A stretch of 64,000 nt of DNA from Bacteroidales bacterium (GCA_003249955.1 QKHS01000006.1:78917-142916); one strand, 5' to 3'; numbered from the stretch's first letter, positions 41,647-50,935 are shown. Notes: generated from the letters alone by a model not told the origin. A program made the numbers and translations.

Positions 41647-44286
41647 ATGAAAAAATACTTTTTTACTCTTCAGATGTTGTTGTTTTTGTCTGTTGTTTCC
41701 TTTTCACAACCATTCGGCAACGATATCCAAATGTTATCAATTAATTGTCCAAACGGTAATTATTATTACGGAAGTGAACTGCAATATCCTTCATTTACTG
41801 TAAAAAACACAGGAATTAATCAGATTAATGAAATTAATGTTTATTACAGCATTGACGAAAACGAAGAAATCCTGAGAAATCTTACAAATATTGCATTACA
41901 AACCGGCCAAACCCGTAATGTTCTGTTTCCCGAAATTGAGCTGATACCGGGTACACATAGTATTTCTGCAAGAGTAGAGATTGTTGGAGCAGATGATGAA
42001 TTTACAAATGATAATTTTCTGGAATCAACGTTTTCTTTCGGAGGTGAGGACATTGGCATTTGTCAGATATCCGGACCTGATTCAGATTATTGCGGCATTG
42101 AACAGCCGGTACCCGCTGTATGGGTTAAAAATTATTCAGATATTGATATAAGCTCGTTTACCGTAAGTTACAGACTTGACTTTTATCCTGTTGTTTCCAT
42201 TGATGTAACAGAAACCATAGCCCCTGGCGATAGCATTCTTGTTGTTTTCGATGCAGTTACAATCAGTTCCGGAAACCATGCAATCCAGTTCATTTGTTCT
42301 GCCCCTAACGGTAACCAGGACTCAAATACTGCAAATAACTCTATGTCCCTGTCATTCGATTACTCCAATGGAAAACATATACTCATATCAATATTAACCG
42401 ATAACTTTGGAAGTGAAACCTCATGGGATTTAAAAAATTCCATGAATCAACTCATAGCTCACGGATCAGGATATAGCTCCAACACTTTGTATGAACACAA
42501 TTTATGCCTTAGTGCAGATTGTTTTACGTTCACAATTTATGATTCATATGGTGATGGCATGTGCGGCAGTTTTGGTACCGGATATTACAAAATAGAAGAT
42601 GTTGACGGAGAAGAAATCATTATTACAGGTTGTGATTTTACCACAAGTGCTACCGCAAACTTCTGTATAGAAACACCTCCCGGACCTCCGGTTGCAAACT
42701 TTTCCCATTCTGATGTTAACAATTGTACCGGAACTGTAAATTTCTATGATAACAGCAACTGTAACCCTGCTGCAGTATCATGGTTATGGAATTTTGGTGA
42801 CGGAACAACATCTGACGAACAAAATCCGGTTCACACGTATGCAATGAACGGGTCTTATAATGTAAGCATGCAGGTAACTAACTCATCCGGAACATCTTCA
42901 TTAACCATTCCGAATTCTGTTCTGATAAACAAAGAAGCGTCTCCTTTCATTGCAGATGAACACTTTTGTTACGGAGAAAATGTAAGCTTTTTTGCCCCAG
43001 AAGGTACTGATCAGCTATATTGGTATGCAACGCCTTATTCTGAAACTCCTTTGCAGATAGGATCAAACATCAGTTTTGCAAATCTTACAAACGATACTAT
43101 TGTTTATTATGAGTCTGGCTCCGAACCTCAAATATCCAACGTAGGTCTTACTGACAATACCGGAGCAGGAGGATATTTTTCTTTTTCAATTGACAGAGCT
43201 GTTTATTTCGATGCCATTAGTGAAGTAACAATAAAATCAGCCACTGTTTATGCCAGCGGGGCAGCAACAAGAACCATAACCCTTAAAAATTCAGGAGGGA
43301 CAGTTCTGGACACAAGGGTGATAAACATTCCTGACGGGGAAAGCATAATAGATCTGGATTTTCAGGTTCCTGCAGGAGAAGATTATGCAATACATGTCAA
43401 TACTGCCAACAATTTGTCATATACAGGCGATTACGGAGGCCCTGACGTAGGTTATCCTTTCACTGTTCCCGATTTAATAAGTTTTACAGGAAATAACTAC
43501 AGCAACAGCTTCTGGTATTTCTTTTATAATATAGAAGTCCAGGCCGGCTCCGGAAGCTCTTGTATTACAGCAAGAACTCCTTTAACAGCAATAATGTCTC
43601 CGCAAACTGTTTCTCTGGGAAATGACACAACCATATGCAACGGAAACAGTTTCTATCTTAGCCCGGAAACAGAATATTCCGGTTATTTATGGAATACGGG
43701 TTCAGAAGAGCCTTCAATTGAAATTAGTGAATCTGGAAACTATCTTGTAACCGTAACTGACGAATATTCATGTACCGCAGACGGATCTGTAAATATTACT
43801 GTTTCTGAAGAGCTTGTATTAAACGAGTATGTCCAGCATCCTTCTGCAGTTGGCAGCAACGATGGAAGTATAGAAATAGAGATTATTTCCGGCAGCGAAC
43901 CCTACGAAATTATATGGAGCAATTCTTCTACAGACTTCGTTATCGGAAATCTGGCTCCGGGGTATTACAGCTATACAATTACAGACAACGAAAACTGCAC
44001 ACATACAGGATCTGTTGAAATTTTCAGTTCAGTACAAACCTCTGTGGAAAACAAAATGTCTGTAAATATATATCCAAACCCTGCAAAGGACATACTTACA
44101 GTAAAATCTGAAGTGAACGGAAGTTTGCAAATTATACTTTACGACTTAAACTCCAAAGAGCTTATTAATACATTTACTAAAAGTCCTGAAACAGAGCTTA
44201 ATATTGAAGGCATTAAACCTGGTGTTTATATACTCAACATTAAAGGATCTGGATTTACAACAAATCAGAAAATTATCAAGGAATAA
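41647..44286 (+). CDS. T9SS type A sorting-domain surface protein with PKD domain
   Basis: Signal peptide, a PKD motif WNFGDGTTSDEQNPVHTYAMNGSYNVSMQVTN, and a C-terminus NIYPNPAKDILTV...GVYILNIKG...NQKIIKE (Por secretion tail). Confidence 0.85.
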   Translation: MKKYFFTLQMLLFLSVVSFSQPFGNDIQMLSINCPNGNYYYGSELQYPSFTVKNTGINQINEINVYYSIDENEEILRNLTNIALQTGQTRNVLFPEIELIPGTHSISARVEIVGADDEFTNDNFLESTFSFGGEDIGICQISGPDSDYCGIEQPVPAVWVKNYSDIDISSFTVSYRLDFYPVVSIDVTETIAPGDSILVVFDAVTISSGNHAIQFICSAPNGNQDSNTANNSMSLSFDYSNGKHILISILTDNFGSETSWDLKNSMNQLIAHGSGYSSNTLYEHNLCLSADCFTFTIYDSYGDGMCGSFGTGYYKIEDVDGEEIIITGCDFTTSATANFCIETPPGPPVANFSHSDVNNCTGTVNFYDNSNCNPAAVSWLWNFGDGTTSDEQNPVHTYAMNGSYNVSMQVTNSSGTSSLTIPNSVLINKEASPFIADEHFCYGENVSFFAPEGTDQLYWYATPYSETPLQIGSNISFANLTNDTIVYYESGSEPQISNVGLTDNTGAGGYFSFSIDRAVYFDAISEVTIKSATVYASGAATRTITLKNSGGTVLDTRVINIPDGESIIDLDFQVPAGEDYAIHVNTANNLSYTGDYGGPDVGYPFTVPDLISFTGNNYSNSFWYFFYNIEVQAGSGSSCITARTPLTAIMSPQTVSLGNDTTICNGNSFYLSPETEYSGYLWNTGSEEPSIEISESGNYLVTVTDEYSCTADGSVNITVSEELVLNEYVQHPSAVGSNDGSIEIEIISGSEPYEIIWSNSSTDFVIGNLAPGYYSYTITDNENCTHTGSVEIFSSVQTSVENKMSVNIYPNPAKDILTVKSEVNGSLQIILYDLNSKELINTFTKSPETELNIEGIKPGVYILNIKGSGFTTNQKIIKE

Positions 44287-44315
44287 AAAAAGCACCGTAT
44301 GGTGCTTTTTTTTTA
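44287..44315. terminator. Bidirectional rho-independent terminator
   Basis: The sequence is aaaaa-agcacc-gtat-ggtgct-ttttttttt, between convergent genes. Confidence 0.8.
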
Positions 44316-45305: not shown

Positions 45306-45343
45306 AACTACCTGACAATTATTTTACTAATTATCAGGTAGTT
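45306..45343 (-). terminator. Putative terminator hairpin after the porin gene
   Basis: A 10-bp stem pairs aactacctga with tcaggtagtt, about 20 nt after the stop at 45364. The trailing U-tract on the minus strand is weak. Confidence 0.45.
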
Positions 45344-45363: not shown

Positions 45364-46827
45364 CTAAAACTTAAATCCGAGGGTTGTTACAATTCTGCTG
45401 CGATCTTTTATTATGTCTGTTATAGGACTGGTATTATTATATCCTTCATACATAAAATATCCGCTTTTTCCTGTAATGTAAGAGTATGAAACGTCAAAGT
45501 ACATATTGTCGGATCTTACCCCCAAACCTCCGCTGTAAACAAGAGTATATGCATCTTTATTAATATGATCTGTTTTATAAGGAGTATCATAATATGCCCC
45601 ACCTGCTCTGAATGCCAATGGTCCGAATCTGTATTCCAGACCTAACTTCACATTGTGCGAAGGCTTATATTCTGTCCTTATGTTTTCATTCTCACCGGAA
45701 AATACATAATCATAACTTCTTAACCTTGCTAAAGAATAATCAACATATTCATAATCAATATTTACCAGAGCAATTTTCTGAATAATAAACCCGAGACTTG
45801 CGTTTGCTCTGAACGGAGAAGTAAGTTCATAATCAAAACTACCGAGATAAGAATCTTCTGATTTTGATTTTGTAGGGTCCTCAAAAGATGATGTAACAGA
45901 TGTATAATAACTATCCCTCAAGTCGTAAAATGTAGGAGTATGCACCGATCCACCTATTCTTACCCATGGCAAAGGTGAATACAATAATCCTATCTTAAAG
46001 TTAATACCCGAACCTTTTGTTTCAAGATATTCTTTAAAACTAAAAGAATTAAAATCGGGAATAGAATCAAGTTCATCTTTTTCCTGCAATATTTTTACCT
46101 CTTCGTAGTTTATTGCCTGAATGCCCATTGATGCTCCTATAAATATTTTATTCATTACATTTGCTGACATCGCAAAGTTATATTCTCCCTGGTTGCCGTT
46201 ACGATAAATAATCTGCTCCTGGCTCTGTCCGTATTTTCCGTAATAAACACTTACATAACTCATAGTATCCGGCAGGTTCTGATCTATAAGCCAGGATTCC
46301 CATGCAAGATTTGAATAAAAATTATCTTCACTGTTAAGATATGAGTATGAAATTCCATCTCCTCTTGCAGCAAACCAATCGGTCATAGAATTATAATCAT
46401 TTGTTCCCTTTATGTAGATATTCTCATTAAAATTATTTAACCTGTTGTATGATATTCCCAGGTTTATTGAAGTTATCCCGTTTTCATTATTAACAGGAAT
46501 TGTCCCGATATATGACAAGTTGTTTATATTAAAATTAAAATCATAATCAGATGCTTCACTGCCGTTAAAAGTTGCATAATTATTTGTTACAACAAAACCT
46601 GTGGAAAAAGAAAAATCTGAAGATTTGTAAACCCCCATACCTGCAGGATTAAAGTACAAAACAGACGGATCTGCACCTAACGCTCCGAATGAGCCTCCCA
46701 TGGCATTATATCTGGCTGTACCGCCAGGATTAAGTAATGAATACCTTAGAGCATCCACCTCATTCTGTCCGTAAACCCATCCTGATACAGACAATGCCAT
46801 ACCTATTAATATAATTGCTTTTCTCAT
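45364..46827 (-). CDS. FadL/TodX-like outer-membrane beta-barrel protein
   Basis: Signal peptide, then DALRYS...GGTARYNAMGGSFGALGADPSVLYFNPAGMG (FadL-like N-terminal hatch pattern). The terminal TTLGFKF is a beta-signal. Confidence 0.5.
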   Translation of the reverse strand: MRKAIILIGMALSVSGWVYGQNEVDALRYSLLNPGGTARYNAMGGSFGALGADPSVLYFNPAGMGVYKSSDFSFSTGFVVTNNYATFNGSEASDYDFNFNINNLSYIGTIPVNNENGITSINLGISYNRLNNFNENIYIKGTNDYNSMTDWFAARGDGISYSYLNSEDNFYSNLAWESWLIDQNLPDTMSYVSVYYGKYGQSQEQIIYRNGNQGEYNFAMSANVMNKIFIGASMGIQAINYEEVKILQEKDELDSIPDFNSFSFKEYLETKGSGINFKIGLLYSPLPWVRIGGSVHTPTFYDLRDSYYTSVTSSFEDPTKSKSEDSYLGSFDYELTSPFRANASLGFIIQKIALVNIDYEYVDYSLARLRSYDYVFSGENENIRTEYKPSHNVKLGLEYRFGPLAFRAGGAYYDTPYKTDHINKDAYTLVYSGGLGVRSDNMYFDVSYSYITGKSGYFMYEGYNNTSPITDIIKDRSRIVTTLGFKF

Positions 46828-46844
46828 GACTTAAAATTTAAAAG

Positions 46845-48650
46845 TTATCTTCTTCCACCTGATGAACTACTACTTGAAGAACTACCTCCTGAACTTCTTG
46901 ATCCTCCTGAAGAACTGCTTCCTGAGCTTCGGCTTGAGCTACCGGAAGAGCTACTGCCGGAATAAGAACTTCCTGAACTTCTTGAACTACCGGAGTAAGA
47001 ACTACCCGAACTTCTGTTTGAGCTGCCGGAAGATGAACTGCCGGAACTTCTGTTTGAGCTACCGGAGTATGAACTACCTGAGCTTCTGTTTGAACTACCC
47101 GAAGAGCTACTGCCGGAATAAGAACTTCCTGAACTTCTTGAACTACCGGAAGAGCTGCTTCCTGAGTAAGAACTGCCGGATGTTCTGCCCGAGCTGGATG
47201 ATGGTCTTGTATAACTGTTGTTACCATTATAATTAGAAGAGCCTGAACTGTTTGATGGTCTGGTATAGCTGTGATTACCTGACTCTGAACTACCTCTGCT
47301 TGTAGCAGGCCTTGTTGTTGTTCCCGAAGTTGAGGTTCCGGTTCTGCCACTATTATTGCTTCCCGAATTCTCAGGTTTGTTTACATTATAATTGGTTCTT
47401 GAATTATATTCAGGTTTGTTGTATGTTTTTGACGAAGAATTGTCTGCGGGTTGCTTTTGTGTTGATGTGCTGTTGTTTCCTGTACGTCCGGACGGGTCAA
47501 CCTGAACAGATGATCCTGAATATGAACTTCTTCCTGAATTTCCTGAATTGTCGGTTTTTGCTGAAGAAGAATTCACATTAACTTTTGACGGTTCCTGATT
47601 ACGTGAGGAATTATCAGGTATTTTATCAGCAGCAGGTTTTTTATCATTTAAAGCAGCCGGGACACGTGAAGAATTATAAGGAGCCTTATCTCCCGAAGGG
47701 TTTTTATCTGTTGATACGTTTCCGCCATCCCTTCCTGAGTTTGAAACTGCTTCTACTGCGACAGGTCTTTTTTCCGAAGACACAACACCGTTACTTATAT
47801 TATCAGGAGTTCTTCCGTCTTTTGTGGTTTCCTGTACAGAAACGTTTGCTCCGCTGTAAGTTGAAGTAGTAATTGTATTGGATTCAGGAACACGCGGAGT
47901 GTCATTTGATGAAGATCCGTTTCCTCCTGAAGAACCTCTGTGCCCGTAGTATGTGTTATCAAAGCCATCATTGTGTGCATATCCGCCGCCACCGTTACTA
48001 TGCCAGTTGTTACCCCAGTAGCCATCATAATAACCGTCATGATAACCATTCCAGTAACCGTTCCAATAATTTCCGTAACCGTAACCATAATAAGGGTAAC
48101 CCCATGAATAGTAAGGAGAATACCATGAATAATAAGGAGTGTACCATCTGTTATAACCTACGTACCAGCCACCGTTCCAGGACCATCCCCAATCCCAGCA
48201 ATAAAAAGGATCGTAATAATAATATGGAACGTAACTGTGTCCGAAATTATGGAAATAAGATGAGTATCCGTAATATCCGCCATCGTCATAATAGTCTCCG
48301 TAGTAATAATTATTTTCGATATAATTTCCGTTATCGTCATAATAAGGATCATTTTCGTAACTACCTTCTTCTGTGTAGTAGCCATCATTATAATAGCCGT
48401 CATTATTACCGGAACCATCCTGGTAATAAGCCGTTTCTTCCGGATTCTCATTTCCGAATTCGGAATTATATGTTTCCTCATAAGTTGCTTTGTCGGCATC
48501 AACCTTGGAAACATCGTTTGTACCGGCCTGAATTTTGACTTCATCAGGCGAATAATACACATCGTCATAGCCGCCTGTCGTGTACAGATTTACTGTGCAG
48601 GAACTTGCCACAACCAAAATAATTAACGATAAATAAAATAAAGCTTTCAT
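46845..48650 (-). CDS. Extremely low-complexity lipoprotein (Tyr/Gly/Trp/Asn/Asp block, Ser/Asn/Thr linker, Ser/Gly/Arg/Tyr repeat tail)
   Basis: Start set at MKALFYLSLIILVVASSC (lipobox). The frame stays open through 1.8 kb of biased sequence. The gene ends 17 nt before the porin gene start. Confidence 0.6.
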   Translation of the reverse strand: MKALFYLSLIILVVASSCTVNLYTTGGYDDVYYSPDEVKIQAGTNDVSKVDADKATYEETYNSEFGNENPEETAYYQDGSGNNDGYYNDGYYTEEGSYENDPYYDDNGNYIENNYYYGDYYDDGGYYGYSSYFHNFGHSYVPYYYYDPFYCWDWGWSWNGGWYVGYNRWYTPYYSWYSPYYSWGYPYYGYGYGNYWNGYWNGYHDGYYDGYWGNNWHSNGGGGYAHNDGFDNTYYGHRGSSGGNGSSSNDTPRVPESNTITTSTYSGANVSVQETTKDGRTPDNISNGVVSSEKRPVAVEAVSNSGRDGGNVSTDKNPSGDKAPYNSSRVPAALNDKKPAADKIPDNSSRNQEPSKVNVNSSSAKTDNSGNSGRSSYSGSSVQVDPSGRTGNNSTSTQKQPADNSSSKTYNKPEYNSRTNYNVNKPENSGSNNSGRTGTSTSGTTTRPATSRGSSESGNHSYTRPSNSSGSSNYNGNNSYTRPSSSSGRTSGSSYSGSSSSGSSRSSGSSYSGSSSSGSSNRSSGSSYSGSSNRSSGSSSSGSSNRSSGSSYSGSSRSSGSSYSGSSSSGSSSRSSGSSSSGGSRSSGGSSSSSSSSGGRR

Positions 48651-48732
48651 GATATTATGAATTTTTATAGTTTTGAACCAAAATTTTTTAAAAGAACTTG
48701 ACAGTTTTACAGCAAATTTCATACCAAATAAT

Positions 48733-50205
48733 ATGGCAAAAGTACTTACAGACAGGGAAGAAAACTACTCACAATGGTACAATGATTTAGTAATAAAAGC
48801 CGACCTTGCAGAGAACTCTGCAGTGAGAGGATGTATGGTTATAAAACCTTACGGATACAGCATTTGGGAAAAAATGCAGTCCGTTCTGGATGGCATGTTT
48901 AAAGAGACAGGTCATGTTAATGCATATTTCCCTCTGTTTATTCCGAAATCATTTTTCAGCAAAGAAGCGAATCACGTTGAGGGGTTTGCAAAAGAATGTG
49001 CTGTTGTGACTCATTACAGGTTAAGAAACAGTGAAAAAGGTGGTATTGAGGTAGATCCCAACGCAAAATTAGAAGAAGAACTGATTGTTCGTCCGACATC
49101 CGAAACAATAATCTGGAATACCTATAAAAATTGGGTTAAGTCATACAGAGACCTGCCAATACTTGTAAATCAATGGGCAAATGTTGTAAGATGGGAAATG
49201 CGTACCCGCCTGTTTTTAAGAACTGCCGAATTTTTATGGCAGGAAGGGCATACTGCACATGCCAGCAAAGAAGAAGCTCTGATTGAAGCTGAAAAAATGA
49301 TAAATGTTTACGCAACATTTGCAAAAGAATATCTTGCTATGCCGGTAATGATCGGAACAAAGTCTGAGAATGAACGATTTGCAGGCGCAGATGAAACTTA
49401 TTGTATAGAAGCATTAATGCAGGACGGCAAAGCATTGCAGGCCGGCACATCTCATTTTCTGGCTCAGAATTTTGCAAAAGCTTTTGATGTTAAGTTTTTG
49501 AATAAAGAAAACAAAGAGGAATATGTCTGGGCTACTTCATGGGGCGTTTCTACCAGATTGATGGGTGCTTTGGTGATGGCACATTCTGACAATAACGGAC
49601 TTGTATTACCTCCAAAACTTGCACCTTTCCAGGTCGTTATCGTTCCTATTTACAAAAACGATGAAGAATTTTCAAAAATTTCTGAACGCGTGAAATTAAT
49701 GTGCGAAAAGCTAAAAGAAAAAAACATAAGGTATAAATTCGATGACAGAGATTCCCAGCGTCCGGGATTTAAATTCGCGGAATGGGAATTAAAAGGGGTT
49801 CCTGTGAGAATTGCAATCGGACCTAAGGATTACGAAAACAACACATGGGAAGTAGCACGCCGGGATACTCTTGAAAAAGAAATTATTGCTGATGCTGATC
49901 TTATTGAAAAAATCGGGTTTTTGATGACTGATATTCAGGAAAACATTTACAATAAAGCATTTCAATTCCGTAAAGAGCATACTTTTAAAGCTGACACATA
50001 CGAAGAGTTCAAAAATATTCTGGAAAACAATCCTGGTTTTATTGAGGCTCATTGGGACGGAACACGCGAGACTGAGGAAAAAATTAAAGAAGAAACCAAA
50101 GCTACAATAAGGCTTATTCCTCAAAACCCGGTTATGGAAGAAGGTAAATGTATTTATTCCGGGAAACCATCAAAATTCAGAGTTATTTTTGCAAAATCAT
50201 ACTAA
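48733..50205 (+). CDS. proS: Proline--tRNA ligase (archaeal/eukaryotic type)
   Basis: Motifs [52 protein letters not shown] and [30 protein letters not shown]. Start set at the ATG at 48733. Confidence 0.9.
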
Positions 50206-50215
50206 TAAATAAATT

Positions 50216-50935
50216 ATGGACGATCAAAAAACGACAAAACAACATATTATTGACACTCTTAAAGAAAAATCTGTATTAAAACAAGTTGTCTATGACCAGA
50301 CAAAAGAGACTTTCAGAATACTGAAAAAGGTTTTGCAGGATATTGTATTAGAGTATAATGAAGAAATTTCAAGCGAAGACGAAAGAGTTCTGCTGGAATT
50401 CCGTGATCGTGGGGTTTTCGAAGCTGAAGTAAAAATCGCAGGAGACCTTATAATCTTCAATATGCATTCGAATATTTTTGAATTTCCAAGAAATCATGAA
50501 ATATGGAAAGACAATTATTATGTGGAAGAACCTCTTATGACGTATTCAGGAATTATAAACATCTACAACTTTCTTGCGGATTCGTTCAAGTACAACAGAC
50601 TGGACGATTTAGGCTACCTTATAGGAAGAATGTTTATTAATAAAGATGCAACGTTTTTCATTGAAGGAAGACGCGAGTTGGGCTTTAACTTCCCGTCATT
50701 CGGGAAGAACAAGGTTACTCCTGAAAATATGCGTGAACTTGTTGAATCTACAATTGCATATGCTCTCAAATTTGACTTGCTGGTTCCTCCGTACAATGAT
50801 ATTAAAATAATATCTGTAGAATACATGAAGGAAAAAATAAACAAGCATCAGGTTCAGACAGGAAAACGTTTAGGATTTCAATACAATGCAATTGACGAAT
50901 CTGGTCCTTCTGACAGATCAAAACACACAAAATAA
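50216..50935 (+). CDS. Hypothetical protein (239 aa) downstream of proS
   Basis: A clean ORF 10 nt after the proS stop. No motif recognised. Confidence 0.45.
   Translation: MDDQKTTKQHIIDTLKEKSVLKQVVYDQTKETFRILKKVLQDIVLEYNEEISSEDERVLLEFRDRGVFEAEVKIAGDLIIFNMHSNIFEFPRNHEIWKDNYYVEEPLMTYSGIINIYNFLADSFKYNRLDDLGYLIGRMFINKDATFFIEGRRELGFNFPSFGKNKVTPENMRELVESTIAYALKFDLLVPPYNDIKIISVEYMKEKINKHQVQTGKRLGFQYNAIDESGPSDRSKHTK

Follow-up and report, generated by a model that had tools for sequence, protein, structure and literature searches.

A stretch of 64,000 nucleotides from a Bacteroidales bacterium (GCA_003249955.1 QKHS01000006.1:78917-142916; hereafter the window) carries on its minus strand two co-oriented genes, the first for a lipoprotein of extremely biased composition and the second for a FadL-type outer-membrane barrel. 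The lipoprotein belongs to no named family, and no function is known for either gene, which raises the question of what this pair is and what it does in the cell envelope. Judged from gene order, the two genes form an operon that is conserved beside proS across Bacteroidota. We consider the chances about even that they encode a dedicated barrel-lipoprotein complex of the outer membrane, facing the periplasm and acting in envelope homeostasis.

The lipoprotein gene occupies 46845-48650 (minus strand) and encodes 601 amino acids in 601 codons, followed by a stop codon at 46845-46847. Its open reading frame (ORF) extends upstream to 48722 (minus); its conserved start, however, is further in, at the ATG at 48650 (MKALFYLSLIILVVASSC), where the close relatives also begin. 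The stop of this gene and the barrel ATG at 46827 are separated by exactly 17 nt, as the initial annotation had read, and the gaps at related loci are typically 1-50 nt. The spacer and the second gene are as follows:
46828..46844, minus strand: intergenic spacer between the lipoprotein and barrel genes, 17 nt, read from the sequence
45364..46827, minus strand: FadL-superfamily outer-membrane barrel of 487 aa, AlphaFold2 predicted local distance difference test (pLDDT) 89.9, predicted template modelling score 0.84

A profile of the barrel family (A1) retrieved 80 loci with a barrel identity of 33-78%. All 64 loci with a complete upstream gene encode a lipobox protein directly upstream of the barrel, so the pairing noticed in the initial annotation is kept throughout. 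These upstream proteins comprise 336-673 aa with 9-15% Tyr, a lipobox Cys and a Ser-rich tail that is nearly always basic-ended. The same two-gene arrangement was found independently, via the lipoprotein, in metagenome-assembled genomes (MAGs) of Flavobacteriales and Chitinophagaceae. A divergent proS lies upstream in 64 of the 68 loci with enough flank, while rpoD, which follows the barrel gene on the same strand in the window, has that downstream position in just 3 of 74. A single copy of the barrel gene is present in 195 of 301 high-quality Bacteroidota genomes, representing 126 of 144 genera and nearly all class-mates of the source organism. Both genes are single-copy in the source genome, where a search gave no second or unanchored copy of the lipoprotein. 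Their co-transcription is what we infer from this layout.

Could the long frame simply be a chance ORF in repetitive DNA? Other frames are indeed open through the repeats of the tail (46838-47350, minus; 46862-47236, plus), and at the contig end of a 95%-identical relative (L001:3-200) the public gene call for the tail fragment runs in the wrong frame (VLTPVV...). These alternative frames and the misplaced call are artefacts of repeat composition, and automatic annotation of the tails in this lipoprotein family may often be mis-framed or truncated. The lipoprotein frame itself, whose interruption in relatives the initial annotation had considered, is intact in 64 of 64 full-length orthologs. 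Three relatives with a barrel identity of 78%, 68% and 64% encode intact lipoproteins of 565, 532 and 533 aa, respectively, with a like architecture. Compared with the 78% relative, the proportions of nonsynonymous and synonymous differences (pN and pS) were 0.17 and 0.89 for the N-terminal half of the lipoprotein, 0.14 and 0.73 for the barrel, 0.36 and 0.60 for the linker, and 0.37 and 0.67 for the tail. For the N-terminal half, pN and pS are given instead of dN/dS because synonymous sites are saturated. By these substitution patterns, the N-terminal half is under strong purifying selection similar to that on the barrel, whereas the linker and tail are less constrained; the identity to close relatives is 28-49% in the linker versus 58-76% in the N-terminal half.

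A profile of the N-terminal half gave 3,549 matches at E<=0.001, 1,604 at E<=1e-10 and 383 at E<=1e-30, counted as representatives of 50%-identity clusters, and among the matches listed the top ones span nearly the whole profile. Combined with the conservation map, these matches indicate a constraint on Tyr, Trp, Pro and Gly positions that goes beyond biased composition. As to expression, which the initial annotation had left to be checked, peptides have been detected for the syntenic protein Fjoh_4940 of Flavobacterium johnsoniae, the counterpart of the lipoprotein in another species (PMC12045153 and preprint). Owing to the conservation data, the chance-frame explanation is already refuted, and we give it virtually no credence.

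Translation and composition bear out the initial annotation in its lipoprotein signal, its three low-complexity parts and its repeat tail, and the chain can be divided as follows:
48597..48650, minus strand: signal peptide and lipobox (residues 1-18, ...VVASSC), from the translation; AlphaFold2 helix at residues 2-16
48201..48596, minus strand: acidic Tyr-rich N-region (residues 19-150), Y 23%, net charge -24
48546..48569, minus strand: YDDVYYSP motif (residues 28-35), its spacing from the lipid Cys fixed, from conservation
47931..48200, minus strand: aromatic core (residues 151-240), rich in W/Y/G/N/P and ending in YYGHRGS, Y 24%, G 22%, W 13%
47331..47930, minus strand: polar, fast-evolving linker (residues 241-440), rich in S/N/G/T/V/P, from composition and identity
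46848..47330, minus strand: Ser/Gly/Arg tail (residues 441-601) ending in GGRR, S 55%, G 17%, R 9%

The lipobox Cys18 is invariant in 68 orthologs, and the signal peptide together with this conserved Cys predicts a substrate of signal peptidase II. In the motif that follows, D29, D30 and Y32 are each at least 90% conserved, and a DDxYY sequence lies 8-15 residues past the Cys (mode 11) in 54 of 64 orthologs. The N-region further carries a conserved G-N-Y-I-x-NNYY...DYYD hairpin motif (approximately residues 101-125) and a Y129/F136/YYDP block. Throughout the aromatic core, Y, W, P and G are kept position by position, with Y235 and G236 at least 90% conserved, and the median Y+W+F content of this segment across orthologs is 38%. 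Even the linker contains islands of conservation (YNKPEYNSR.NYNVN and TRPATSRGSSE), and the tail, with a net charge of +13, combines YTRPS islands with five (N)RSSGSS[Y/S]SGSS units. In 67 of 68 orthologs, the N-part is acidic (median net charge -14.5) and the C-part basic (median +20).

No model in Pfam or NCBIfam matches the lipoprotein, Pfam assigns no family to any of the 68 orthologs, and a PDB sequence search with the lipoprotein matched no chain. The AlphaFold2 model, built on a 68-sequence alignment, has a mean pLDDT of only 44.9, and its confident parts are limited to the signal helix (2-16) and a short hairpin at approximately residues 103-111 (pLDDT 83), which sits in the conserved G-N-Y-I-x-NNYY motif. 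The aromatic core reaches a pLDDT of just 34-38. The lipoprotein alone is therefore predicted to be almost wholly intrinsically disordered, and such disorder alongside strong position-specific conservation is what one would expect of a segment that needs a partner in order to fold.

Two likenesses proposed in the initial annotation found no support. The [G/S]Y[G/S] triplets said to recall FUS-like gel-forming domains occur 9 times where 2,000 composition-preserving shuffles gave 9.5 +/- 2.8, and no sub-region is enriched in them. The suggested resemblance to WxxGxW/YxWGxW repeat proteins gave no regular-expression match and no Pfam repeat family in the lipoprotein or its 68 orthologs.

In 65 of the 68 orthologs the chain ends in R or K, and in 63 of 68 at least two of its last four residues are R or K. 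Besides the lipid Cys, the lipoprotein contains only one further Cys (residue 151), and hydrophobic residues are scarce. Proteases of the Prc/Tsp type, which process C-termini, favour apolar ends, and those of the DegP type cleave at hydrophobic residues. These preferences suggest that the Arg-Arg cap and the very low hydrophobic content may protect the tail from periplasmic proteases and so aid survival of the chain in the periplasm.

Acidic Tyr-rich segments also occur elsewhere in the same genome. On contigs C29 and C92, a 1,887-aa alpha-2-macroglobulin-like protein with a GCLEQ thioester motif contains the acidic Tyr run YEDYYFEDYYGGYDDYYYEDEYYYEGDYYYDEYYDDDYYGG, and another ORF contains NYGYYDYYYYDDYYGG; the two are similar to the lipoprotein at its residues 113-128 (NNYYYGDYYDDGGYYGY). 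Segments of this acidic DYY/GG type may recur as an envelope motif in this organism. A genome scan for 38-residue Tyr/Gly/Asn-rich windows returned three ORFs only, namely the lipoprotein, a Wzc-like kinase and the alpha-2-macroglobulin-like protein. One of the papers on the Bacteroidota β-barrel assembly machinery (BAM; PMC12611786 or PMC12578637) describes a flexible Tyr/Gly/Asn-rich extracellular loop of BamA, which is a compositional parallel only; the scan detected no such loop, BamA itself not having been located.

The side of the outer membrane on which this chain lies was approached through its export signals. A lipoprotein export signal (LES) was defined as at least two acidic residues within the six that follow the lipid Cys (as used in PMC12578637), and by that criterion it is present in 0 of 64 lipoprotein orthologs, the first acidic pair lying 8-15 residues past the Cys. 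A C-terminal sorting domain of the type IX secretion system (T9SS; PF18962 / TIGR04183) was not found in the lipoprotein, the C-terminus of which is the Ser-rich tail with GGRR; the search was able to detect such domains, since a neighbouring 879-aa protein scored positive. The D-[ST]-[ALIVMT] O-glycosylation sequon is likewise absent from the lipoprotein. The surface pair with an adhesive cargo envisaged in the initial annotation is not supported, given the missing LES, the missing T9SS domain and the classification of the F. johnsoniae protein as periplasm-facing, and the lipoprotein would more plausibly face the periplasm.

The FadL likeness of the neighbour, recognised in the initial annotation, is well supported. 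With the confident AlphaFold2 model as query, Foldseek retrieved BtBamG (9hiv_F) as the best PDB match (E 3e-17, 14% identity), followed by a P. aeruginosa FadL homologue, P. gingivalis BamG, E. coli FadL and F. johnsoniae BamG, and then TodX and TbuX. The top 27 PDB matches are all BamG, FadL, TodX, TbuX or CymD, with E values from 3e-17 to 3e-10. We are confident that the modelled barrel has the FadL fold with 14 strands and an N-terminal hatch. The signal peptide comprises residues 1-20 and the predicted mature N-terminus is the invariant Gln21, which opens a conserved extension, QNEVDALRYS. Within this extension D25-A26-L27-R28-x-S30 is invariant in 18 diverse orthologs, as is the NPA of the hatch (N60, P61 and A62). 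The protein ends in a C-terminal beta-signal, ...LGFKF.

Despite this fold, the sequence relationship to known families is remote. In a six-frame genome search the barrel scored 30.5 bits with PF03349 versus a gathering cut-off of 29.7, whereas at E<=0.1 hmmscan of the protein against Pfam returned no family; a precomputed PF03349 match is on record for many orthologs, and by sequence the family is borderline, at the edge of that Pfam model. The single barrel sequence matched nothing in the PDB with phmmer, and the family profile reached TbuX only (1e-4) and no BamG chain. In sequence terms, the barrel is a deep branch separate from BamG and PorV/PorQ.

Identity with BamG itself was rejected, as the genome has a separate BamG ORF and neither phmmer nor the family profile reaches a BamG chain in the PDB. 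This true BamG ortholog (contig C71, 18856-20139 in six-frame ORF numbering, 427 aa) matches BtBamG 9hiv_F at 1.6e-55, and an hhalign comparison with the barrel family gave a marginal 33% probability over the hatch region. Identity with PorV or PorQ was rejected as well: the N-terminal hatch motif, which the barrel shares with these proteins, gives a weak NF033709 match, but this scores 22.1 bits against a cut-off of 90 and covers the N-terminal 58 residues only. The genome also contains separate PorV/PorQ-like ORFs, and a profile comparison with the barrel family was insignificant.

The closest known parallel to the pair as a whole comes from F. johnsoniae, in which Fjoh_4939 (proline-tRNA ligase, proS), Fjoh_4940 (a signal peptidase II lipoprotein without LES) and Fjoh_4941 (a FadL homolog) follow one another (PMC12045153 and preprint). 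The locus in the window has proS, a signal peptidase II lipoprotein without export signal and a FadL-type barrel in that order. Fjoh_4940/4941 would be orthologous to the present pair by synteny and annotation; this identical gene order also holds in the Flavobacteriales loci examined here. Both F. johnsoniae proteins were detected by mass spectrometry in membrane fractions, where Fjoh_4940, classed as periplasm-facing and with no assigned function, was fairly abundant (approximately 46 spectral counts in membrane samples; PMC12045153 and preprint). Upon TamL depletion, Fjoh_4940 rose 2.6-fold and Fjoh_4941 5.6-fold, and the authors note a possible functional link (PMC12045153 and preprint). 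No other indexed paper mentions the locus tags Fjoh_4940 or Fjoh_4941, whose UniProt entries are A5FA28 and A5FA29.

A second parallel is offered by BAM of Bacteroidota, described in 2025, which contains the FadL-like barrel BamG and the surface lipoprotein BamH; a conserved N-terminal extension and a surface groove of BamG hold the lipid-anchored N-terminus of BamH, and the paralogous BamG2-BamH2 (Bt1785-Bt1786) are encoded as an operon (PMC12611786, PMC12578637). Like BamG-BamH, the present locus combines a 14-strand FadL-fold barrel bearing a conserved N-terminal extension with a lipoprotein, in an operon as for BamG2-BamH2. Unlike BamG, however, the barrel is approximately 80 residues longer and only 14% identical to it, in a genome with a BamG of its own, and the AlphaFold2 model of the lipoprotein contains no folded crescent or carbohydrate-binding-like domain of the BamH type. 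With FadL, TodX and TbuX (PF03349) the barrel shares the fold, the hatch NPA and the C-terminal beta-signal. It differs from them in its low identity (12-13%), its invariant QNEVDALRYS-type extension and its longer loops, and from canonical FadL genes in having an obligate upstream lipoprotein partner.

In the reading to which we give an even chance, the lipoprotein would face the periplasm from a lipid anchor in the outer membrane's inner leaflet, and its conserved N-terminal half would dock on the barrel and fold upon binding. The docking parts would be the Cys-x11-DDVYY motif, the NNYY hairpin and the aromatic core, while the tail would hang into the periplasm as a flexible polycationic spacer, its charged C-terminus and few hydrophobic residues helping it to evade proteases. 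Such a module would serve outer-membrane homeostasis, for example by handling hydrophobic or lipid molecules via the lateral gate of the FadL-type barrel, and would not be a secreted adhesin. Several points weigh against this proposal. The physical complex, as well as the topology and physiological role, is something that we infer, and the suggested role with lipids or hydrophobic molecules draws on the fold and a single stress-proteomics observation. Orthology with Fjoh_4940/4941 is assigned by synteny and annotation. BamH is folded, surface-exposed and equipped with an export signal, whereas the partner here is disordered and has none, so that the analogy is one of architecture only. The absence of a canonical LES leaves room for export by a dedicated route. 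Finally, in F. johnsoniae vesicles the barrel was reported and the lipoprotein was not, which fits poorly with a tight 1:1 complex (PMC12045153 and preprint).

Such a dedicated route would exist if the barrel exported the disordered lipoprotein or was threaded by it, exposing the Tyr-rich half or the Ser/Arg tail at the surface as an adhesive, matrix or brush-like polymer. The model for such threading is RcsF of Enterobacteria, a lipoprotein with a disordered segment in the lumen of the OmpA, OmpC or OmpF barrel, although RcsF has a folded signalling domain and is not known to have a dedicated barrel gene or any sequence relation to the present lipoprotein. A chain with no folded domain, one extra Cys and few hydrophobic residues could pass a narrow barrel. 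In addition, the N-terminus of FadL-type barrels extends to both the extracellular side and the lateral opening, and the extension of BamG contacts the lipid anchor of BamH (PMC12611786, PMC12578637). The present barrel also has an invariant N-terminal extension, and a conserved motif of the lipoprotein lies at a fixed distance from its lipid Cys. We nevertheless hold surface exposure by this route to be unlikely, given that none of the 64 orthologs has the acidic export signal near the Cys, that no T9SS domain or O-glycosylation sequon is present, and that the FadL lumen is plugged by the hatch, which is conserved here with its NPA. Furthermore, the F. johnsoniae counterpart was classed as periplasm-facing and not reported in vesicles (PMC12045153 and preprint). 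Somewhat more doubtful is the bolder version, in which the fully disordered chain is exported by or permanently threaded through the lumen or lateral gate of its dedicated barrel without LES, as an unrecognised phylum-wide machine, so that it spans the outer membrane with the acidic Tyr/Trp half on one side and the basic Arg/Ser tail on the other. If that were true, the chain would be a tether, a sensor or a gel-forming envelope layer.

The barrel might instead be just an anchor or nucleator for a periplasmic condensate or gel, in which Tyr- and Arg-rich stickers on many tethered copies associate with one another or with peptidoglycan and anionic lipids. Charge as well as Tyr and Arg are segregated along the chain in all but one of the 68 orthologs, the chain is predicted to be disordered, its tail varies in length, and the F. 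johnsoniae protein is fairly abundant by its spectral counts (PMC12045153 and preprint). The FUS hallmark is not enriched, however, and a core conserved position by position points to a specific interface and not to composition-driven association, which makes a gel of this kind improbable in our view. We are equally sceptical that the two genes are uncoupled, with a FadL-type barrel of the ordinary kind, importing long-chain fatty acids or other hydrophobic molecules, and an unrelated envelope lipoprotein that is merely adjacent to it. The retained FadL fold and NPA speak for such an importer, and the authors of the TamL study read Fjoh_4941 as a FadL homolog (PMC12045153 and preprint). On the other hand, the adjacency with very short gaps holds across classes of the phylum while other neighbours, such as rpoD, change, and the barrel has family-specific invariant features not found in canonical FadL. 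Moreover, both F. johnsoniae proteins rise together upon TamL depletion (PMC12045153 and preprint).

The outer membrane of Bacteroidota differs in build from its E. coli counterpart, and it was only in 2024-2025 that several core parts, among them BamG/H and TamL, came to be recognised. The present pair is about as widespread as BamG/H and TamL, is single-copy and under purifying selection, and is made as protein in F. johnsoniae. In a bacterial envelope, a lipid-anchored disordered protein of approximately 600 residues whose conserved core is 38% aromatic is unusual, and it raises the questions of how such a chain survives periplasmic proteases, what it binds, and what role the extra FadL paralogs of the phylum play. 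The pair is a good target for envelope biology, and the module is genetically tractable in F. johnsoniae.

The length of the tail is a variable trait, as the initial annotation had suspected. The underlying DNA contains the following repeats, of which those with 36-nt and 72-nt periods are approximately 80% matching:
46953..47174, no strand assigned: imperfect tandem repeats underlying the tail units, Tandem Repeats Finder, 36-, 72- and 48-nt periods

Compared with the 95%-identical relative L001, the tail shows indels of 3 nt and 15 nt that keep the reading frame, meaning that repeat length changes between strains with the frame unbroken. These indels, being multiples of three, alter the length of the tail and do not switch the gene on or off.

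At its two ends, the transcription unit is bordered by the following elements:
48651..48744, minus strand: upstream region common to the lipoprotein gene and the divergent proS, whose ATG at 48733 has the opposite orientation
45306..45343, minus strand (45343-45306): terminator-like hairpin with T-run 3' of the barrel gene, from the sequence

The upstream region probably holds the operon promoter. The Bacteroidota -7 box TAnnTTTG is matched on both strands (minus, 48744-48737; plus, 48668-48675), but the motif is not enriched across the window, so these matches are weak evidence for a promoter and uninformative. The hairpin marks the end of the two-gene unit, and an Rfam search found no RNA element in or around the operon. 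For proS, on the plus strand upstream of the lipoprotein gene, the mechanically predicted ORF begins at TTG 48673 (+) and would overlap the upstream region of the lipoprotein gene (48673-48733); the prolyl-tRNA synthetases of relatives have 490 aa, consistent with the ATG at 48733.

Directly 3' of proS, positions 50216-50935 (+) encode a 239-aa protein without a Pfam family, which is 47% identical to the gene at the same position in a Flavobacteriales MAG (L007:3627-4325). At loci L002 and L005, similar-sized genes without a Pfam family also follow proS, and this protein seems to be another conserved unknown of the neighbourhood. On the other side of the pair, the 879-aa protein is encoded at 41647-44286 (+) and is a T9SS cargo protein that carries a Por_Secre_tail and matches PKD, CARDB and SprB-repeat models; its gene converges on rpoD, and the hairpin at 44285-44312 is common to both.

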